Assembly: GCF_004010195.1 (NCBI RefSeq)
Contig: NC_057757.1
Location: forward strand, 2,102,733 to 2,122,732
Direction: 5' to 3'
DNA: 20,000 nt
Origin: Chiloscyllium plagiosum
Taxonomy: Eukaryota
This document shows positions 2,700 through 20,000 of the stretch, piece after piece (position 1 is the stretch's first letter; each line of letters begins with the position of its first letter). The notes beneath the pieces were generated by a model. That model was given only the letters and a program-made list of their open reading frames with translations. It made no database searches and had not been told where the DNA came from. The translations under genes were made by a program, and so were the position numbers.

Positions 2700-2844
2700 C
2701 GTTGACTGGACAGCTGGCTTGTGGTGTAGTGATGTCAACAGCATGGGTTCAATTTCCAAACTGGTCGAGGTTCGCGTGAAGGACTCTCCTTCTCAACCTC
2801 TCCCCTGAGGTGTGGAGACCCTCAGTTAAACCACCACTAGCCAG
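2700..2844 (+). mobile_element. tRNA-derived SINE 5' part
   Basis: A-box-like tggtgtagtg and B-box-like gggttcaatttcc followed by a SINE-like body; truncated by the CR1 insertion at about 2845. Confidence 0.4.
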
Positions 2845-3457
2845 AATTGAACAGCACAGAAACAGACCCTTTGGCCCAACTTGTACATGCTAACCAGTTT
2901 TCCTAAAGTCATTTAATCCCACTTGCCAGCATTTGGCCTATATCCCTCTATGGAGAATCTGGGGTATAGGGAGAGGTTGAATGGGCTCGGACTGTTTTCC
3001 CTGGAGGGTCGGAGGCTGAGGGGTGACCTCAGAGTTTTATAAAATCAGGAGGGACATGGAGAGGATAAATAGACAAAGTCTTTTCCCTGGGGTGGGGGAG
3101 TCCAGAACTAGAGGGCATAGGTTTAAGGTGAGAGGGGAAAGATATAAAAGAGACCCGAGGGTCAACTTTTTCACGCAGAGGGTGGTCCGTGTATGGAATG
3201 AACTGCCAGAGGAAGTGGTGGAGGCTGTTACAATTGCAACATTTAAAAGCATCTGGATGGGTATATGAATAGGAAGGGTTTGGAGGGATATGGGCCCAGG
3301 TGCTGGCAGGTGGGACTAGATTGGGTTGGGATATCTGGTCAGCATGGACGGGTTGGACCGAAGGGTCTGTTTCCATTCTGTACATCTCTGTGACTCTAAA
3401 CCCTTCCTATTCATGTACTCATCCCGATGCCTTTTAAGTGTTCTAATTGTACTGACC
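2845..3457 (-). mobile_element. CR1-like LINE 3' end, split by a nested insertion (host parts 2845-2950 and 3399-3457)
   Basis: ...tatccctcta (to 2950) rejoins aacccttcctattcatg (from 3399), as in the uninterrupted copy at 7530-7560 (atatccctctaaacctcgcctattcatg). Confidence 0.75.
2951..3398 (+). mobile_element. CR1-like LINE 3' fragment (ORF2 C-terminus and 3' UTR)
   Basis: Encodes ..SRTRGHRFKV..FFTQRVVRVWNELPEEVV..TFK, the typical CR1 ORF2 C-terminus; ends ctctgtgactcta; near-identical to 16478-16904. Confidence 0.9.
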
Positions 3458-4090
3458 TCAAGAGAGAGAGCGAGCTAAAGGGGAGTGAGAGAGTGATGTG
3501 CAGTGACAGTCCTCCCACCATGCTGCATGTAAAGGGTTCACTCACTCTGAGTGACAGAAGGCAATGAGCTAGTCTGAAGGAAACAGGTACAAACAGAGAA
3601 CTGTCTTACTGAGTGCTGTCAATTAACCACCGTCTAAAGCAAACAAGACAAAAGGATTTCAACTCACCTGCAAAGCCAAGAATCCCAAAATTAACTGCCC
3701 AACGATCAATGCTCCACTGTTTACTCTCTATCACTGACCCAGAGACTGTTCCATATAGCTTTTATCTTATCTTGGACTCGCTTTTCATTTCATGTTACTT
3801 TGTATCTTACATTCATATTTATTTTGCAGCTAATAAGCTCAATTTTCTATTAACTCAAGAAAGCGAAATGAGATTGGCTGCTTTTGAAACATTAATTCAT
3901 TTGGTCAGCGAGAAAGACATTCACAAGGGAGCGATCTTTCTAAATTATCCTTGCTCCGACCAACCCGAGGAAGCAGATTAATGAAGGAGGGAGCCAGTTT
4001 ATCCTCCTCCCCTGGAAAGCTACTGCGACATCTGGTCATAACGCTCATACTCAGAGTACCTCCTGGTCCTCTCAAAGACTCCCAGCTTAC

Positions 4091-4299
4091 CTTCCGCCCC
4101 CCAGTGTAAAGCAGGTTTCCATCGGGTGAAAATGTCACGTGTGTCACTCCTCCCTGATGGCCCTGTAAAATGGTGAGCACAGTCCCCCTGTCCCTGGAGT
4201 ACAGTCCCACTGTCTTAGAGTAGGAGGCACAGGCGTACAGGTCATGCTCTGGGCTGAAGGCAATGCACGAGATGATCCCAGTCTGCCCCCGTTTCTTCA
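4091..4299 (-). CDS. WRAP53: WRAP53 coding exon 7
   Basis: (V)[33 protein letters not shown]...[27 protein letters not shown]40 repeats; tctctttccag| acceptor after a (CT)n tract, |gtaagc donor; 209 nt, phase 1/0. Confidence 0.97.
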
Positions 4300-4639
4300 C
4301 TGGAAAGAGAAAAAGAGAGAGAGAGAGAAAGGCCAGTCAGTGGAATTCTGTAGTTTTTCATTGCTGGCTGTTCACTGGAAATTGGGGGAGGGGGGGTGCT
4401 GTTCTGACAACCTTCCCACCAATGCTGACTGCATTCCCTGCACACTGGCGTACCAATCAGCTCTCCCCCCCTCTAGGATCTTGCATCATACCAAGGCTTG
4501 GTGAACCAACTTTATAGAAGGTGCTATGGACCACATGCAAAACAATCGTACAGAACTGAATATAGCCCTTTGGTTGGTCAGTCCTGTGCCAGCTGTTTGA
4601 AAAAAAACTATCCAATTAACTCTGTTCTCTTGCCCCAGG

Positions 4640-5027
4640 AGCAACAGAGGCTGAGGGGTGACCTTAGAGATTTATTAGGTCATGAGGGGCATGGATAGGG
4701 TAAATAGTCAACATCTTTTCCTTGGGGTGGGGGAGTACAGCACTAGTAGGCATAGGTTCAGGGTGAGAGAGGAAAGATATAAAAGGGATCTAAGGGGCAA
4801 CTTTTTCACATAGAGGGTGCTGTGTGTATGGAATGAGCTGCCAAAGGAAGTGGTGGAGGCTGGTACATTTAAGCATTTAAAAGGCATCTAGATGGGTATA
4901 TGAATAGGAAGGGTTTAGAAGGATATGGGCCAAGCACTGGCAAACGGGACTAGATCAGGTTAAGATATCTGGTTGGCATGGACGAATTGGAGTGAAGGGT
5001 CTGTTTCCATGCTGTACATCTGACTCT
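4640..5027 (+). mobile_element. CR1-like LINE 3' fragment
   Basis: Same family as 2951-3398 (gaggctgaggggtgacctt...ggaatgagctgcca...gaagggtctgtttcc). Confidence 0.85.
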
Positions 5028-5891: not shown

Positions 5892-6024
5892 CCAGGGTTG
5901 GTCTCTTCTCACACTCTCGGCCTGGACGAGATACGTCGAACACCCTCACCATCTTGTCAAAGCCACAGAACAGCTGATTCCCATCGGGTGTGAAACAGAG
6001 CGAGTGAGCAGACGTCAGCTCATC
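5892..6024 (-). CDS. WRAP53: WRAP53 coding exon 6
   Basis: [44 protein letters not shown]; ttgcag| acceptor, |gtatgc donor; 133 nt, phase 0/1. Confidence 0.97.
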
Positions 6025-6546
6025 CTGCAAGCAGAACATTCAAACAAACTCTACAGCCCAATTGGCAATGGCAGTTACCTCTACTGGTTGACATGCTATA
6101 CATCCTCTGAGTATCAGATATATTCCACTGTCCCTTGATTACCTCCCACCTTCCATCACTTCAAATTCATCCAAAACCCTTACTCCTAATGCATTCGGTT
6201 CCATTCATTCATCACCGCAGTTCTCGACCCCTCTGATATCTTCACACTCCTACAACTCTGGGCTCTTGCACATCGTGATATCTTTTCCTTCAGCTAATCT
6301 AAATTCTGGAAATTGACTCGCTAAACTGCTCTGCTTCTCTCTTTCACAAGAACCCTTCCCTTAAAATGTAGGTTTTAAATTAAGCTTTTGCCCCAATTCT
6401 CCTCAATATCATGTTGCCATATTTTGTTATGATATCAATCAAGTGCATCATGTAACCATAACAGAAAGTGATACCTTTTGAGTGTACGCCACCTCTCATG
6501 TGTACCTGGGGGCCACTCTCTCGTAATCAACCAACTGTAAATATTA

Positions 6547-6828
6547 ACACAAAATCAGAAATTGCTGGAAAAGCTCAGCAGGTCTGGCAGCATCTGCAGA
6601 GAGAAATCAGTTAGCACTTTAGGTCAAGTGACCCTTCTTCAGAATCTGTTTTTATTTAGTATTTAACTCACTGCCGCATCTCTTCCAGGCATGCTAGGTC
6701 TGAGGAAGGATCCAAAACGTTAACTCAGATTTCTCTTCACAGATGCTGCCAGACCTGCTGAGGTTTTCCAGCAATTTCTGTTTTCGCTTCTGATTCACAG
6801 CATCTGCAATTCTTTCGGTTTTTTATCT
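6547..6828. mobile_element. Non-autonomous Penelope-type mini-element: inverted repeat with degenerate hammerhead motifs and 11-bp TSD
   Basis: TGTAAATATTA direct repeat at 6536-6546 and 6829-6839; arms about 6556-6642 (-) and 6700-6780 (+) are reverse complements; each begins with CTGA(A/G)GA. Confidence 0.75.
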
Positions 6829-7083
6829 TGTAAATATTAGCTATCCCATTACATGAGGAATCACACAGGAATGTGACCCGCAGAGCACACTGAGTCAGCA
6901 GCTGGTCACTGGTTATAATCGGGGCTGCTTGTGCCCTCAAACTTCAACTTCAACCCTTGCACAGAATTAGAACAGCAACTCAGCAACATCACACACAACT
7001 CCATGTCCTAGGATTCCACCTGTTAAAGCTGCTGGATGTACTTGGTGGAGAAAGTTAGAAGGTTAAAGCCACCTGGGACTTAC

Positions 7084-7174
7084 CAGGTGATTGTACGGCC
7101 GGAACGTGGCCCGTAGGTCCCCGTAGAAAGCGTCCCAGATGTGAATCGGGTTGTCGCGGCTGCTGCTGGCCAGA
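7084..7174 (-). CDS. WRAP53: WRAP53 coding exon 5
   Basis: [30 protein letters not shown]; ttgcag| acceptor, |gtaagt donor; 91 nt, phase 2/0. Confidence 0.97.
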
Positions 7175-7434
7175 CTGCAAAAGGAATGGCAACAGTACAG
7201 AGTTCAGAAGCCATGCTCTGACCCACTGTCTCACCTCACATTTTAGTAGTTAGAGTGGATTCACAAGGACAAAGAAACTGGCTAACAAACTAAACACGGC
7301 TGAGGTGCCGCGTGGGTATGTAAAAAGCAATGCTTTCGTATAAAGCCAACTAATAAGAAACCCACAAGTACTGGAATTGTGTACAGCACACAATGCCAAC
7401 ATGGCCCAGGAGGCCACCATTCAGCCCACCAAAG

Positions 7435-7697
7435 AGTCATATATCATGCAAACAGGCCCCTAGTTCAATTTGTCCATACCAACCAAATTTTCCAAACTAA
7501 ACTAGTCCCATCTGCCCGCACTTGGCCCATATCCCTCTAAACCTCGCCTATTCATGAACTTACCTAAATGCCTTTTAAATTTTGTAACTGTACCTGCATC
7601 CACCATTTCCTCTGCTAGTTCATTCCACACACTAACCACTCTGTAAAATAAAGTTGTCCCCATGTCTGTTTTTAATGTCTCTTCTCTCACCTTAATC
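7435..7697 (-). mobile_element. CR1-like LINE 3' fragment
   Basis: Minus-strand ORF ..FYRVVSVWNELAEEMVDAGTVTKFKRHLGKFMNRRGLEGYG. Confidence 0.85.
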
Positions 7698-8400
7698 CTC
7701 CAACTATTTGCCCAATTTCCTTCTGAAGGCAAATTTTGACAGCATATTACAAATTGTTCAATTTTTCTCCCCTGGCCCAAATCTGTCACCTTTGGTTTTC
7801 GACCAAACTGCTATATAAACGAAAAAGAACTCTGGGCTCTGGCCTCCTGAGCAGGGTTACATATTGGGATTGAGCCCCCAATCAGTGACTGCTATCATGG
7901 AGCTTGGACTAATTTCCGATAGCAAACGAGATATTTTGGTTATGCGATGTGTTTTGTTTTGAACAGACAAAAGATAATTCATTAGGAAATAGAACTGGAC
8001 AGCTACCTGCAATGTAAAAATCTCCAGGGCTGTGAAGAATGGAGGAATTGGACTGCTCTTTCAAAGGGCCAGCACAGGCACAATGGGCCGAGTGGTCTCC
8101 TTCTGTGCCATAAGTTCGCAGATTAAATAACTTTTCTCATTGCAGGAGAAACCAGTCACTTGTTTCAGTCATTCATGGTCCTTTTGCGACTGCGACATTT
8201 TATCACTCAAGGAGAACATGAATCTTTTGCCCACCTAACTATGGACCAATGAAATTGCTTGTATCAAAAGTTGCACGCTCCTGCGATGTTGATAGTGGAT
8301 TAAGCACAGCAGGTAGTATGTGAGGGACCCTTAAATCCAAACATCAAAATACAATAACATTCCTGTTGTGGTTCTGTTCGCCGAGCTGGGAATTTGTGTT

Positions 8401-8440
8401 GCAGACATTTCGTCCCCTGTCTAGGTGACATCCTCAGTGC
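8401..8440 (-). ncRNA. Minimal type I hammerhead ribozyme motif (Penelope pLTR), WRAP53 sense strand
   Basis: Minus strand: gca-CTGAGGA-t-GTCaCCT-agac-AGGgGAC-GAAA-tGTC-tgc; both core boxes, helix II, GUC triplet and 3-bp helix I (gca/tgc). Confidence 0.7.
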
Positions 8441-9646
8441 TTGGGAGCCTCCTGTGAAGCGCTTCTGTGATATTTCCTCCGGTGTTTATAGTGGTCTGTC
8501 CCTGCCGCTTCCGGTTGTCAGTTCCAGCTGTCTGTTGCAGTGGTCGGTATATTGGGCCCAGGTCGATGTGCTTATTGATTGAATCTGTGGATGAGAGCCA
8601 TGCATCTAGGAATTCCCTGTCTGTTCTCTGTTTGGCTTGTCCTATAATAGTAGTGTTGTCCCAGTCGAATTCATGTTGCTTGTTGTCTGCGTGTGTGACT
8701 ACTAAGGATAGCTGGTGGTGTTCATGGATGCGGATCGTTAGCTGTCTTCCTGTTTGTTCTATGTAGTGTTTTGTGCAGTCCTTGCATGGGATTTTGTACA
8801 CTACATTGGTTTTGCTCATGCTGGATATCGGGTCCATCGTTCTGGTGAGTTGTTGTCTGAGAGTGGCTGTTGGTTTGTGTGCTGTTATGAGTCCTAGTGG
8901 TCGCAGTAGTCTGGCTGTCAGTTCGGAAATGCTCTTGATGTATGGTAGTGTGGCTAGTCCTTTGGGTTGCGGCATGTCCTCGTTCCGTTGTCTTTCCCTT
9001 AGGCATCTGTTCATGAAATTGTATTTGCCAAAAACGGATACCCGCGCAATTTCATCAACAGATGCAAAGGGAAAGACAACGGAACGAGGACATGCCGCAA
9101 CCCAAAGGACTAGCCACACTACCATACATCAACAGCATTTCCGAACTGACAGCCAGACTACTGCGACCACTAGGACTCATAACAGCACATAAACCAACAG
9201 CCACTCTCAGACAACAACTCACCAGAACGATGGACCCGATATCCAGCATGAGGAAAACCAATGTAGTGTACAAAATCCCATGCAAGGACTGCACAAAACA
9301 CTATATAGAACAAACAGGAAGACAGCTAACGATCCGCATCCATGAACGCCAACTAGCTACGAAACGACACGACCAGATAGCCTTAGTAGCCACACACTCA
9401 GATGACAAGCAACATGAATTCGACTGGGACAACACTACTATTATAGACAAGCCAAACAGAGAACAGCCAGGGAATTCCTAGATGCATGGCACTCATCCAC
9501 AGATTCAATCAATAAGCACATCGACCTGGACCCAATATACCGACCACTGCAACAGACAGCTGGAACTGATAACAGGAAGCGGCAGATTCAAGCCACTATA
9601 AATGCCAGAGGAAACATCACAGAAGTGCTTCACAGGAGGCTCCCAA

Positions 9647-9686
9647 ACACTGAGGATGTCACCTAGACAGGGGACGAAACGTCTAC
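9647..9686 (+). ncRNA. Minimal type I hammerhead ribozyme motif (second copy)
   Basis: aca-CTGAGGA(9650-9656)-t-GTCaCCTagacAGGgGAC-GAAA(9676-9679)-CGTC-tac; core intact with palindromic ACGT, helix I mismatched. Confidence 0.65.
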
Positions 9687-9782
9687 AACACAAATTCCCA
9701 GCTCGGCGAACAGAACCACAACAACGAGCACCCGAGCTACAAATCTTCTCACAAACTTTGAACAATAACATTCTGCACTTAC

Positions 9783-12827: not shown

Positions 12828-13190
12828 CAGAGTCATAGTGCCCAGAAACAGACCCTTCGATCCAACTAGCCCATGCTGACCATGTTCCCAAATTAAACTA
12901 GTCTCACTTGCCAGTGTTTGTCTCATATCCCTCCAAACCTTGCCTATTCATGAACTTATCCAAATGTCTTTTAAACATTTTAACTGTACCTGCATCCACC
13001 ATCTCCTCCGGTAGTTCATTGCACATAAGAACAACCCTCTGTATAAAAACATTGTCCCTCATGTTCTTTTTAAAACTTTCTCCTCTCACCATAAAAATAT
13101 ATCCCTTAGTTCTGAACTCTCCCATGCCAGGGAAAAGACCCCTGACATTCACCTTATCTAAGCCCCTCATGATTTTATAAACCTCAATAG
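12828..13190 (-). mobile_element. CR1-like LINE 3' fragment
   Basis: Minus-strand ORF MRGLDKVNVRGLFP..FIQRVVLMCNELPEEMVDAGTVKMFKRHLDKFMN; tail (ctatgactct) at about 12829-12838. Confidence 0.88.
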
Positions 13191-15519: not shown

Positions 15520-15850
15520 TAAAATCATCTGAGGTATTGATAAGGTGAACATCTTTACCCTAGGGTGGGGGAGTTCAAAACTAGAGGGCATTGGTTTAAG
15601 GCGAGAGGGAAAAGATTTAAAAGCAATCAGAGGGGAAACATTTTCCGCACAGAAGGTGGTGCATATACGGAATGAACTGCCAGTGGAAATGGTAGATGCA
15701 GATACAGTTACAACGTTTCAAAGACAGTTAAACAGGTAGATGAATGGGAAAGGGATGTGGGCCAAATGTTTAGAGGGATGTGGGCCAAACAAGAGCAAAT
15801 GGGATTGTTTAGTTTGGGAAAACTGGTCAACTTGGGTGATTTGGGCCAGA
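15520..15850 (+). mobile_element. CR1-like LINE 3' fragment
   Basis: ..FSAQKVVHIRNELPVEMVDADTVTTFQRQLNR. Confidence 0.8.
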
Positions 15851-15980: not shown

Positions 15981-16904
15981 GTAAGTAAGTTTGCAGATGA
16001 CATCAAAATTGGAGGTGTAGTGGACAATGAAAAAGGCTACCTCAGATTACAATGGGATCATGATCAGATGGGCCCACGAGCTGAGAAGTGTTGGATGGAG
16101 TTTAAATTAGATAAATGCAAGGTGCTGCATTTGGGGAAGCAAATCTTAGCAGGACTTATACACTTAATGGTAAGGTCCTAGGGAGTGTTGCTGAACAGAA
16201 ACCTTGGAGTGCATGTTCATAGCTCCTTGAAAGTAGAGCTGCAGGTAGATAGGATAGTGAAGGTGGTGTTTGGTATATTTTTCTTTATTGGTCAGAATAT
16301 TGCATACAGGAGTGGGGAGGTCATGTTGCAACTGTACAGGACATTGGTTAGGTCACTTTTGGAATATTATGTGCAATTCTGGTCTCCTTCCTATCGGAAG
16401 GATGTTGTGAAGCTTAAAAGGGCTCAGAAAAGATTTACAAGGATGTTGCCAGAGTTGGAGGATTTGAGCTATGGGGGAGGTTGAATAGGCTAGGGCTGTT
16501 TTCCCTGGAGCGTCGGAGGCTGAGGGGTGACCTTATAGAGGTTTATAAAATCATGAGGGCATGGATAGGATAAATAGACACGTTCTTTTCCCTGGGGTGG
16601 GGGGAGATCAGAACTACAGGGCATAGGTTTAGGGTGAGAGGGGCAAGATATAAAAGAGACCCAAGGGGCAACGTTTTCACACAGAGGGTGGTGTATGTGT
16701 GCAATGAGCTTCCAGAGGAAGTGGTAGAGGAAGGTACAATTGCAACATTTAAAAGGCATCTGGATGGGTATATGAATAGAAAGGGTTTGGAGGGATGTGG
16801 GCTGGGTGCCGACAGGTGGGACTAGATTGGGTTGGGATATCTAGTCAGCGCGGACAAGTTGGACCGAAGGGTCTGTTTCCGTGCTGTATATCTCTATGAC
16901 TCTA
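15981..16904 (+). mobile_element. 5'-truncated CR1-like LINE (RT C-terminal half to 3' end), frameshifted
   Basis: Starts at the RT motif aagtttgcagatgac (KFADD); LYRTLVRSLLEYYVQFWSP..RAQKRFTRM; FTQRVV..NELPEEVV; ends tctctatgactcta. Confidence 0.92.
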
Positions 16905-19030: not shown

Positions 19031-19279
19031 TTCTTAAAACCCCTGAAGCTCACGATTGGGTGGGTTCCTTGAAACCCCAGATAGTGAGGGAGGGTTTGCC
19101 CTGAAGCCCAAGATTAAGGGAGGGGCCTCTTGGAACCCTATATAATGGGGGGCTGCCTTGAAACCCCAGATATGTCGTGGGAGTGGGGGTGTCCTGAAGC
19201 CGAAGATTGGGGGTCCTTGAAACACCAGATAGTGAGGGGGCTACCCTGAAGCCCAAGGAGAGAGGGGATTCCTTGAAAC
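19031..19279. repeat. Degenerate minisatellite with about 26-33-bp subunits of two alternating types
   Basis: Alternating ccttgaaaccccagatagtgaggg.. and ccctgaagcccaagatt..gggg units. Confidence 0.75.
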
Positions 19280-19388
19280 GGCAGGTGCGGGTTGAGGTAC
19301 ACAGTCTCCGGAGCCCTGGGAGGCGCTGAGTGACCTGCCTGTGCAGGTGAGTGGTGGGAGGGGTGGGGGGAACGGGTCGATCAGTCAC

Positions 19389-19500
19389 TCCGCGGAGGAA
19401 GCGGGAGCCGGAGCCAGAGCCAAGGCCATCTCCTCCACCTTCTCCCTGAGCTGCAGCTTCACACAATCACCGCCGGGGCCGCCGCCATGTTGGTGAGGTC
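19389..19500 (-). other. WRAP53: Putative non-coding first exon of WRAP53
   Basis: GC/CpG-rich, immediately downstream of the promoter motifs; candidate donor GGA|GTGACT at 19388; boundaries uncertain. Confidence 0.4.
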
Positions 19501-19540: not shown

Positions 19541-19741
19541 TGAAACTCCAGCAACCTTAAATTTCCTTCATTTTCCCTTTAAAAAAAAACAAAACCCTCC
19601 ACTTGGGGTTGCTCCTTTTACATCGTGACACCATTTGTGTGTGGTGGGTGAAGGGGAGTCTCATCCTATTAAAACCACTTCAGGAAACTGCACTTACATA
19701 GCGCCTTCGACGCCATAAACTATTTTCTACTTCCTTCCTCC

Positions 19742-19860
19742 ATAACAACAAATGCTGGAGATCACAGCGAGTCAGGCGGCATCCATAGAGAGAGAGAACA
19801 AACCAACGTTTCGAATCTACATGACTCCTCATCAGACCATCTGCAGTAATTTGCTCCTAC
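19742..19860 (-). mobile_element. Short Penelope-type mini-element with hammerhead core (19801-19838)
   Basis: Minus strand: CTGATGA-g-GAGTC-atgta-GATTC-GAAA-CGTT, then ..ggatgccgcctgactcgctgtgatctccagcatttg, similar to the arms at 6547-6828. Confidence 0.6.
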
Positions 19861-19954: not shown

Positions 19955-20000
19955 AGGTAAAAACAATGACTGCAGATGCTGGAAACCAGATTCTGGATCA
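19955..20000. mobile_element. Start of another related interspersed repeat, cut by the window edge
   Basis: aaaaacaatgactgcagatgctggaaaccaga is reverse-complement similar to the 3' tail tctgattcacagcatctgcaattctttcggttttt at 6790-6824. Confidence 0.5.

Follow-up and report, generated by a model that had tools for sequence, protein, structure and literature searches.

How did two head-to-head copies of one short unit, each beginning with the remains of a hammerhead ribozyme and together enclosed by an 11-bp target-site duplication (TSD), come to lie in an intron of a shark gene, and was the hairpin that they form carried there ready-made or put together on site? We consider it likely, at a probability of roughly 0.75, that this locus results from a single insertion, old and now dead, in which a very abundant Penelope-type family left its hammerhead-bearing end module (a pseudo-LTR with a tail), and that the hairpin was formed at insertion rather than being imported as a fixed 282-nt RNA. 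Positions given below are those of the window, the whole 20,000-nt stretch of DNA that was analysed.

Anatomy, setting and age of the insertion

The TSD, TGTAAATATTA (91% A+T), lies at 6536-6546 and 6829-6839 (+) and has no further occurrence on either strand of the window, confirming the perfect duplication and the two outward-facing copies that the initial annotation had reported. When exact 11-mer repeats at 270-319 nt spacing were sought over 19,600 start positions, 6 starts were returned, and the TGTAAATATTA pair alone accounts for these 6 (one such pair contributes 6 starts per position). The interior between the TSD copies is 282 nt long (6547-6828) and holds two head-to-head copies of one 95-135-nt unit: an inverted end-module copy without a tail at 6547-6644 (-), which is placed by arm alignment and by the family contigs that accumulate there and may extend to about 6648; and a direct copy, whose portion common to the left arm is at 6694-6789 (+). 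Between them, approximately 50 nt of filler (6645-6693, unstranded) belong to neither arm.

The two arms pair closely: 6552-6608 and 6728-6784 are 91% complementary over 57 nt, and a 23-mer common to both arms occurs twice with 0 mismatches, two matches being reached in 0 of 200 shuffles. Followed as far as the front edge of the hammerhead, the alignment of the arms shows differences at 18 of 94 sites, 4 of them at the filler edge; in addition, the right arm has an 8-nt deletion and the left arm one of 2 nt. The tail follows the right copy only, at 6790-6828 (+); it was placed by arm alignment, and tails of 30-40 bp are described in the available text of PMC3846280, PMC8557442 and PMC11167929. 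Its one-sidedness was correctly read from the outset, and is shared with a neighbouring 1.4-kb element whose tail is 38 nt; the length of about 45 nt that was first proposed becomes 39 nt if counting starts at the TSD-proximal end of the left arm, or 44 nt if it starts at the last perfect pair.

Might the arms instead be two independent short insertions in opposite orientations, separated by about 50 bp of original intron that now looks like filler, and the TSD a coincidence? The abundance of the family (below) means that near neighbours must occur, and the arms do differ at the 18/94 sites just described. However, the perfect, window-unique 11-mer abuts both outer ends; neither arm has a TSD of its own at its filler edge, bar a loose 21-nt resemblance; and the tail is exactly what the left arm is without, as in the 1.4-kb element. 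We regard two separate events as very improbable.

RNA of either strand is predicted to fold into one long hairpin (-124.8 and -125.4 kcal/mol; equally stable shuffles in 0 of 200 and 0 of 100; z -12 at -124.8). An effect of such a hairpin on editing or splicing in a TCAB1 intron is conceivable in principle, and nothing here shows either. Being short, non-coding, hairpin-shaped and TSD-flanked, the element has the look of a MITE, or of another DNA-transposon derivative with long terminal inverted repeats; yet its inverted repeats are not terminal, the right one ending 39 nt before the TSD on the tail side, its arms start with a hammerhead, many contigs of the family cover a single arm and its tail alone, and the centre is variable. 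A DNA-transposon origin is thus largely refuted, the MITE reading failing on the non-terminal repeats. The initial annotation's remark that the element is easily mistaken for a MITE or SINE is upheld as an annotation warning for sharks, in which this abundant family has that look but a Penelope-type end.

The host gene is TCAB1 (WRAP53). Aligning the TCAB1 protein to the window placed coding exons at 7084-7179 and 5893-6024, so that the element sits within a 1.06-kb intron (6025-7083, -; ends approximate), the exons being about 245 and 510 nt away. At 4138-4300 (-) there is a WD40 exon with 98% identity to Chiloscyllium plagiosum TCAB1 and 96% to the whale and zebra shark proteins; it also has a PDB match. 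Elsewhere in the window a short degenerate tandem of 28-61-nt units (19062-19265) lies beside a GC-rich stretch, with an open frame at 19050-19466 (-) that is possibly the first exon of the next gene. Another dispersed repeat, its copies 65-86% alike and in both orientations, recurs at 2842-3459, 4627-5021, 7463-7642, 12829-13139, 15552-15822 and 16497-16895; we take it to resemble the 3' ends of an elasmobranch LINE or of its SINE.

Four of 24 runs were compared, at 80% likeness, with 6150-7349. Three were DNA-type runs, two from organism A and one from organism B (a related species), and the fourth was a poly(A) single-cell run from A. The insertion is present in organism B, whose contigs span the right junction by 41 letters and the left by 30, and the right junction is also spanned by 46 letters in a second sample of organism A; no empty orthologous site was seen in A and B. 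Around the element, A and B differ at 27 of 945 letters, against 14-18 of 94 between the arms, from which it follows that the insertion is old, common to both organisms and older than their split.

The 1.4-kb neighbour (8363-9761, unstranded) is a younger inverted insertion of another Penelope family with a GIY-YIG-type C-terminus, recognised by its arms, its protein matches and its 12-bp TSD (8351-8362 and 9762-9773). It encodes the C-terminal part of a Penelope-type protein, for which there were 9 matches among 423 candidates; the best six, from bamboo and epaulette sharks, are 86-93% identical, and several matches have an RT domain and one a weak GIY-YIG match. Its arms differ at 29 of 636 sites (95% alike), and an intact right hammerhead motif stands at 9650. 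The small element had been read as a copy of this Penelope inverted layout, and the layout does hold; that reading omitted that the small element and the 1.4-kb element have different units (the best local scores between them being 29 and 18), and that filler occupies the centre. As a separate observation, a predicted bamboo-shark MAP3K7 isoform contains an 86%-identical piece of Penelope endonuclease region, which is either an exonised insertion or an annotation artefact. We also observed ATT one base before the right end in both TSDs (6536-6546; 8351-8362), two cases only; ATT is given as the cleavage motif of anole Penelope in the available text of PMC11167929.

Hammerhead remnants and the family that carries them

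Both arms begin with a dead minimal hammerhead. On the left (6609-6642, -), the core CTGAAGA (6642-6636) is present and helix II (6634-6630 with 6625-6621) is still paired and folds; the GAAA box (6620-6617) is altered at G12 and A15.1, and U16.1 (6614) is altered too, as seen from the window sequence, from the family-majority letters at 6614, 6617, 6621 and 6626 and from the loose ends behind 6610. On the right (6700-6725, +), sequence comparison and the loose ends before 6708 and 6715 reveal the core CTGAGGA (6700-6706), then the 8-nt deletion, which takes the 5' strand and loop of helix II, an altered G12 (6714) and a retained cleavage triplet GTT (6719-6721). In hammerhead numbering, G12, A15.1 and U16.1 are needed positions, and CpG sites are prone to decay; G12 has been lost on both arms, each time at a CpG. 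A complete catalytic motif is found in neither local copy; the two remnants stand in the sequence as they were originally quoted, and the decay of both GAAA boxes is confirmed. Read in the direction of the host gene, a donor-like GTGAGT (6671) and an acceptor-like CTGCAG before an ATG (about 6595) flank the left hammerhead, about 76 nt apart (window 6671-6595, -), and acceptor-like sites occur on the + strand at 6688 and 6742; neither set has read support.

In each of the three DNA runs the majority letters of the family spell out an intact minimal hammerhead, as read from the loose ends (behind 6610 and ahead of 6708 and 6715) and from positions 6614, 6617 and 6626. The motif comprises a 4-bp helix I, CTGA-G/A-GA, one extra A, helix II GGGTC/GACCC, GAAA, then CG and the triplet GTT, and the GAAA box, which had been put forward with the initial annotation as the check to make on the family, is therefore there. 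These features match the minimal-hammerhead list in the available part of PMC4209133, including the extra nucleotide after A9. The comparison supports descent of the decayed local motifs from an intact minimal hammerhead. Helix II covariation is anecdotal, the second pair being G-C in the small-element family and A-U in a third unit at 19,835, with too few sequences to count. That third hammerhead-headed unit, of a related family, lies at 19,740-19,842 (-); it has an intact GAAA and helix II GAGTC/GATTC, and it ends at the front edge of the core. An apparent short inverted tail piece precedes it, there is a tail-like stretch at 19955-19995 (-), and no clear TSD was seen.

An Rfam search of the window at E up to 5 did not return the hammerhead match that had been suggested as a check: it gave 5 matches, all under the gathering score and none a hammerhead, and it missed the motif of the 1.4-kb element as well. 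Five hammerhead-like stretches folded singly gave z of -0.2 to -1.6, a measure that is not informative for minimal motifs. On the question of a tRNA-like SINE head, ARAGORN found 0 tRNA genes and Rfam no tRNA in the window, both being methods that miss decayed heads; the unit itself starts with a hammerhead.

The family is very abundant. Matching contigs number 55,465, 56,963 and 54,459 in the three DNA runs, nearly all of them on the arms, and summed core depth in these runs is about 80,000-160,000 times that of the flank, a depth that is not a copy number. In front of the hammerhead, the majority letters of the loose ends become A/T-rich within about 6 nt (with an agreement of 0.57-0.59 for the string as a whole), and most family copies therefore seem to end at the hammerhead front edge.

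The poly(A) single-cell RNA run of organism A contains 986 family reads among the 12,955,460 read, on both strands; only 1 of the 986 is at least 99% alike, which makes this run uninformative on the local copy. The initial annotation had called the element 'retrozyme-like'; a retrozyme would be a copy of a hammerhead-excised monomeric or circular RNA, subsequently reverse-transcribed. The type I minimal hammerhead of the family majority would suit such an origin, as would the T-rich stretches at the filler start and tail end (loosely like terminal redundancy) and the tandem retrozymes described, in the available text of 10.64898/2026.07.22.740005, in the one cartilaginous fish examined. The ribozymes, however, are on opposite strands, so that no transcript contains two; the catalytic core, upstream of the cut site (6721/6722), is kept in both arms, so that neither arm begins at a cleavage end; and whole-element RNA is one long hairpin. 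No clustered RNA ends were found among the 986 reads, which is a weak test, coming from one poly(A) single-cell run that cannot show circles. The label has to be given up, and to a retrozyme origin we attach very little credence.

A search for a coding partner, using the unit read through one stop as protein, gave 0 matches among 5 candidates; with no coding element found to carry the unit, Penelope membership rests on motif and layout. In public viral contigs there were 0 loci for the core motif and 0 for the hammerhead pattern. In public metagenome and genome contigs the core motif gave 1 locus each, which we rejected as bacterial chance matches confined to the 22-mer. The shark family was absent from the literature searched, Repbase and Dfam lying outside that search.

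The filler and the source of the inverted layout

If the hairpin were a fixed RNA, its centre would travel with its arms. Among the 15 fold-back joints shown (688 different ones in total), 14 link the inverted to the direct arm, at many points, and bypass the filler; among the 12 between-strings shown (501 in total), 0 equal the local filler. Other fold-back copies thus have different centres, and for the 282-bp form the best reading is a one-off event, in which a Penelope-type end module was inserted together with about 50 nt of filler. The bin 6670-6709, which takes in the right half of the filler, reaches 0.15-0.16% of the core depth; this is still 119-248 times the flank depth, an excess which the hammerhead edge at 6694-6709 may explain, tens of filler copies being also possible.

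The same data can be turned towards a fixed, non-autonomous palindromic family, in which Penelope proteins would act in trans on transcripts of a master locus that contain the whole 282-nt hairpin with its centre. This is the initial annotation's view less the retrozyme cycle. Among joints over window 6576-6767, some junction contigs are deep (1,730.7, 454.5 and 392.5, against 9-31 in the flanks), and this tens to hundredfold excess over single-copy flanks means that some hairpin centres recur in the genome; they could nevertheless be copies within larger repeats, or junctions that formed repeatedly. The filler bin leaves room for up to about 120-250 flank-equivalents, but the local centre was in 0 of the 15 joints and 0 of the 12 between-strings shown, and centres vary widely. 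The filler has no clear local source, none of significance being found within the 20-kb window (its second part was matched by 47 of 100 shuffles), and the available text of PMC8557442 and PMC3846280 records both Penelope-type elements that are non-autonomous and cases of sequence caught between solo pLTRs. Against this, a fully paired hairpin RNA of the stability given above should mask the protein-bound module, and a sequence-index search returned no look-alike of the centre (a weak point, the index having also missed the abundant arms). We find a fixed family improbable, and nothing here shows the 282-bp form as a mobile family of its own. One candidate for the second filler part, a loose likeness to the unit core (21/29, score 14), was set aside as not significant.

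The filler's first 21 nt (6645-6666) resemble the reverse complement of the element's left junction (6538-6559), where the end of the arm meets TSD letters. In a comparison with the two junction boxes of the element, the score is reached by 75 of 5,000 shuffles and by 2 of 654 other window boxes (one place); window-wide, the resemblance, which was spotted post hoc, is not significant, 152 of 200 shuffles equalling it. It is a possible snap-back or templated filler made on site and, as a hint only, weakly favours local assembly.

Returning to a single insertion as the preferred reading, mobilisation by Penelope-type machinery, as originally proposed, is supported by the layout, the TSD and the AT-rich target, judged by analogy with the neighbouring 1.4-kb element and the literature. 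The inverted layout suggests that either: one RNA was primed twice, to which we would give about an even chance; or that one arm arose by fold-back or self-priming, which is a real possibility, if short of evens. Anatomy alone does not tell the two apart. The arms of the 1.4-kb element end about 25 nt apart after 640-700 nt, and thus either both came from one template or one came from the other, which fits double priming of one RNA and fold-back equally.

Under double priming, a Penelope RT/GIY-YIG protein would cut AT-rich DNA in two places, nicking the top strand after 6546 and the bottom strand at 6829, so that two 3'-OH ends were left 11 nt apart. From each of these, reverse transcription could be primed on the same RNA, in one case at the tail end (6828) and in the other 39 nt inward (6547 matches 6789). 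Both cDNAs would run off just upstream of the hammerhead, the probable RNA start, and end joining would close the two, adding the filler. The ribozyme would be a passenger during insertion and would then decay neutrally, both G12 losses being at CpG. Double priming with run-off would produce head-to-head arms, a one-sided tail and a TSD without an extra step.

A bolder reading, which we consider rather unlikely, is that such stubs are direct fossils of double priming by one Penelope protein dimer at two fixed starts, the filler's junction copy dating the joining to the insertion, and that some hairpins may in addition be amplified again in their entirety, forming a MITE-like class that a retroelement mobilises. 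If true, both the double-priming and the re-amplification claims would be countable across tens of thousands of shark copies. The layout of inverted copy, tail and TSD is already in print (PMC3846280, PMC8557442 and PMC4209133, in their available portions); a search by title and abstract found no literature on Penelope twin priming with inversion, which is a thin basis for calling the double-priming idea unpublished. This single dead copy is of little importance in itself; copies of its kind are material for the open question of Penelope inverted ends and tails.

Comparison with known Penelope-like elements and retrozymes

Three of five features of Penelope (EN+) elements were found: the inverted copy with a one-sided tail, the short AT-rich TSD and, in the family majority, the minimal hammerhead. 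In the available text of PMC3846280, PMC8557442 and PMC8969392, EN+ Penelope-like elements typically occur as inverted, 5'-truncated copies with one-sided tails of 30-40 bp and TSDs of 8-10 bp, and in Adineta unrelated DNA is found between solo pLTRs flanked by TSDs; PMC3846280, to the same extent, favours self-priming on an antisense template. The shark element has in common with these insertions the head-to-head, 5'-truncated copy, a tail of 30-40 bp on one side, a TSD in the range of about 8-12 bp, an AT-rich target and the unrelated sequence that sometimes lies between solo pLTRs. It is unlike them in being cut down to the end module (135 nt and about 98 nt), and in being known here without a coding partner.

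Minimal hammerhead pairs 100-700 bp apart on opposite strands, with many solo motifs from truncated elements, are described in PMC4209133, the available part of which names no shark family. With these metazoan Penelope type I minimal hammerheads the family shares a short helix I, the extra nucleotide after A9, the G10.1-C11.1 pair, a palindromic 15.2-16.2 and the lack of helix III. It differs in that helix II is 5 bp, as against 7-8 bp in the Schistosoma families, and in that the local copies are dead.

A biochemical parallel is PAc (Poseidon, green anole, in vitro; PMC11167929, here from its available text). The purified anole Penelope protein, which is a predicted dimer, cleaves and extends both strands and prefers AT-rich DNA; two adjacent internal starts bound the tail, and RNA with a dead hammerhead was still inserted, so that cleavage is not required. 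Two RT starts bounding the tail, both strands cut and extended and AT-rich targets are thus common ground, although that text does not apply its two-start result to inverted insertions. The PAc starts lie about 110-120 nt past helix II, whereas the shark element ends about 90 and 129 nt past it (deletion added back).

Retrozymes, in the available text of 10.64898/2026.07.22.740005 and PMC7761336, consist of units repeated head to tail, carry two or more ribozymes on one strand and give rise to circular RNAs. The shark element resembles the metazoan non-LTR retrozymes of these sources in being non-coding, in its type I hammerhead, in its kinship with Penelope pLTRs and in its presumed mobilisation by Penelope proteins; unlike theirs, its two motifs, at 6642 (-) and 6700 (+), are dead and stand head to head.
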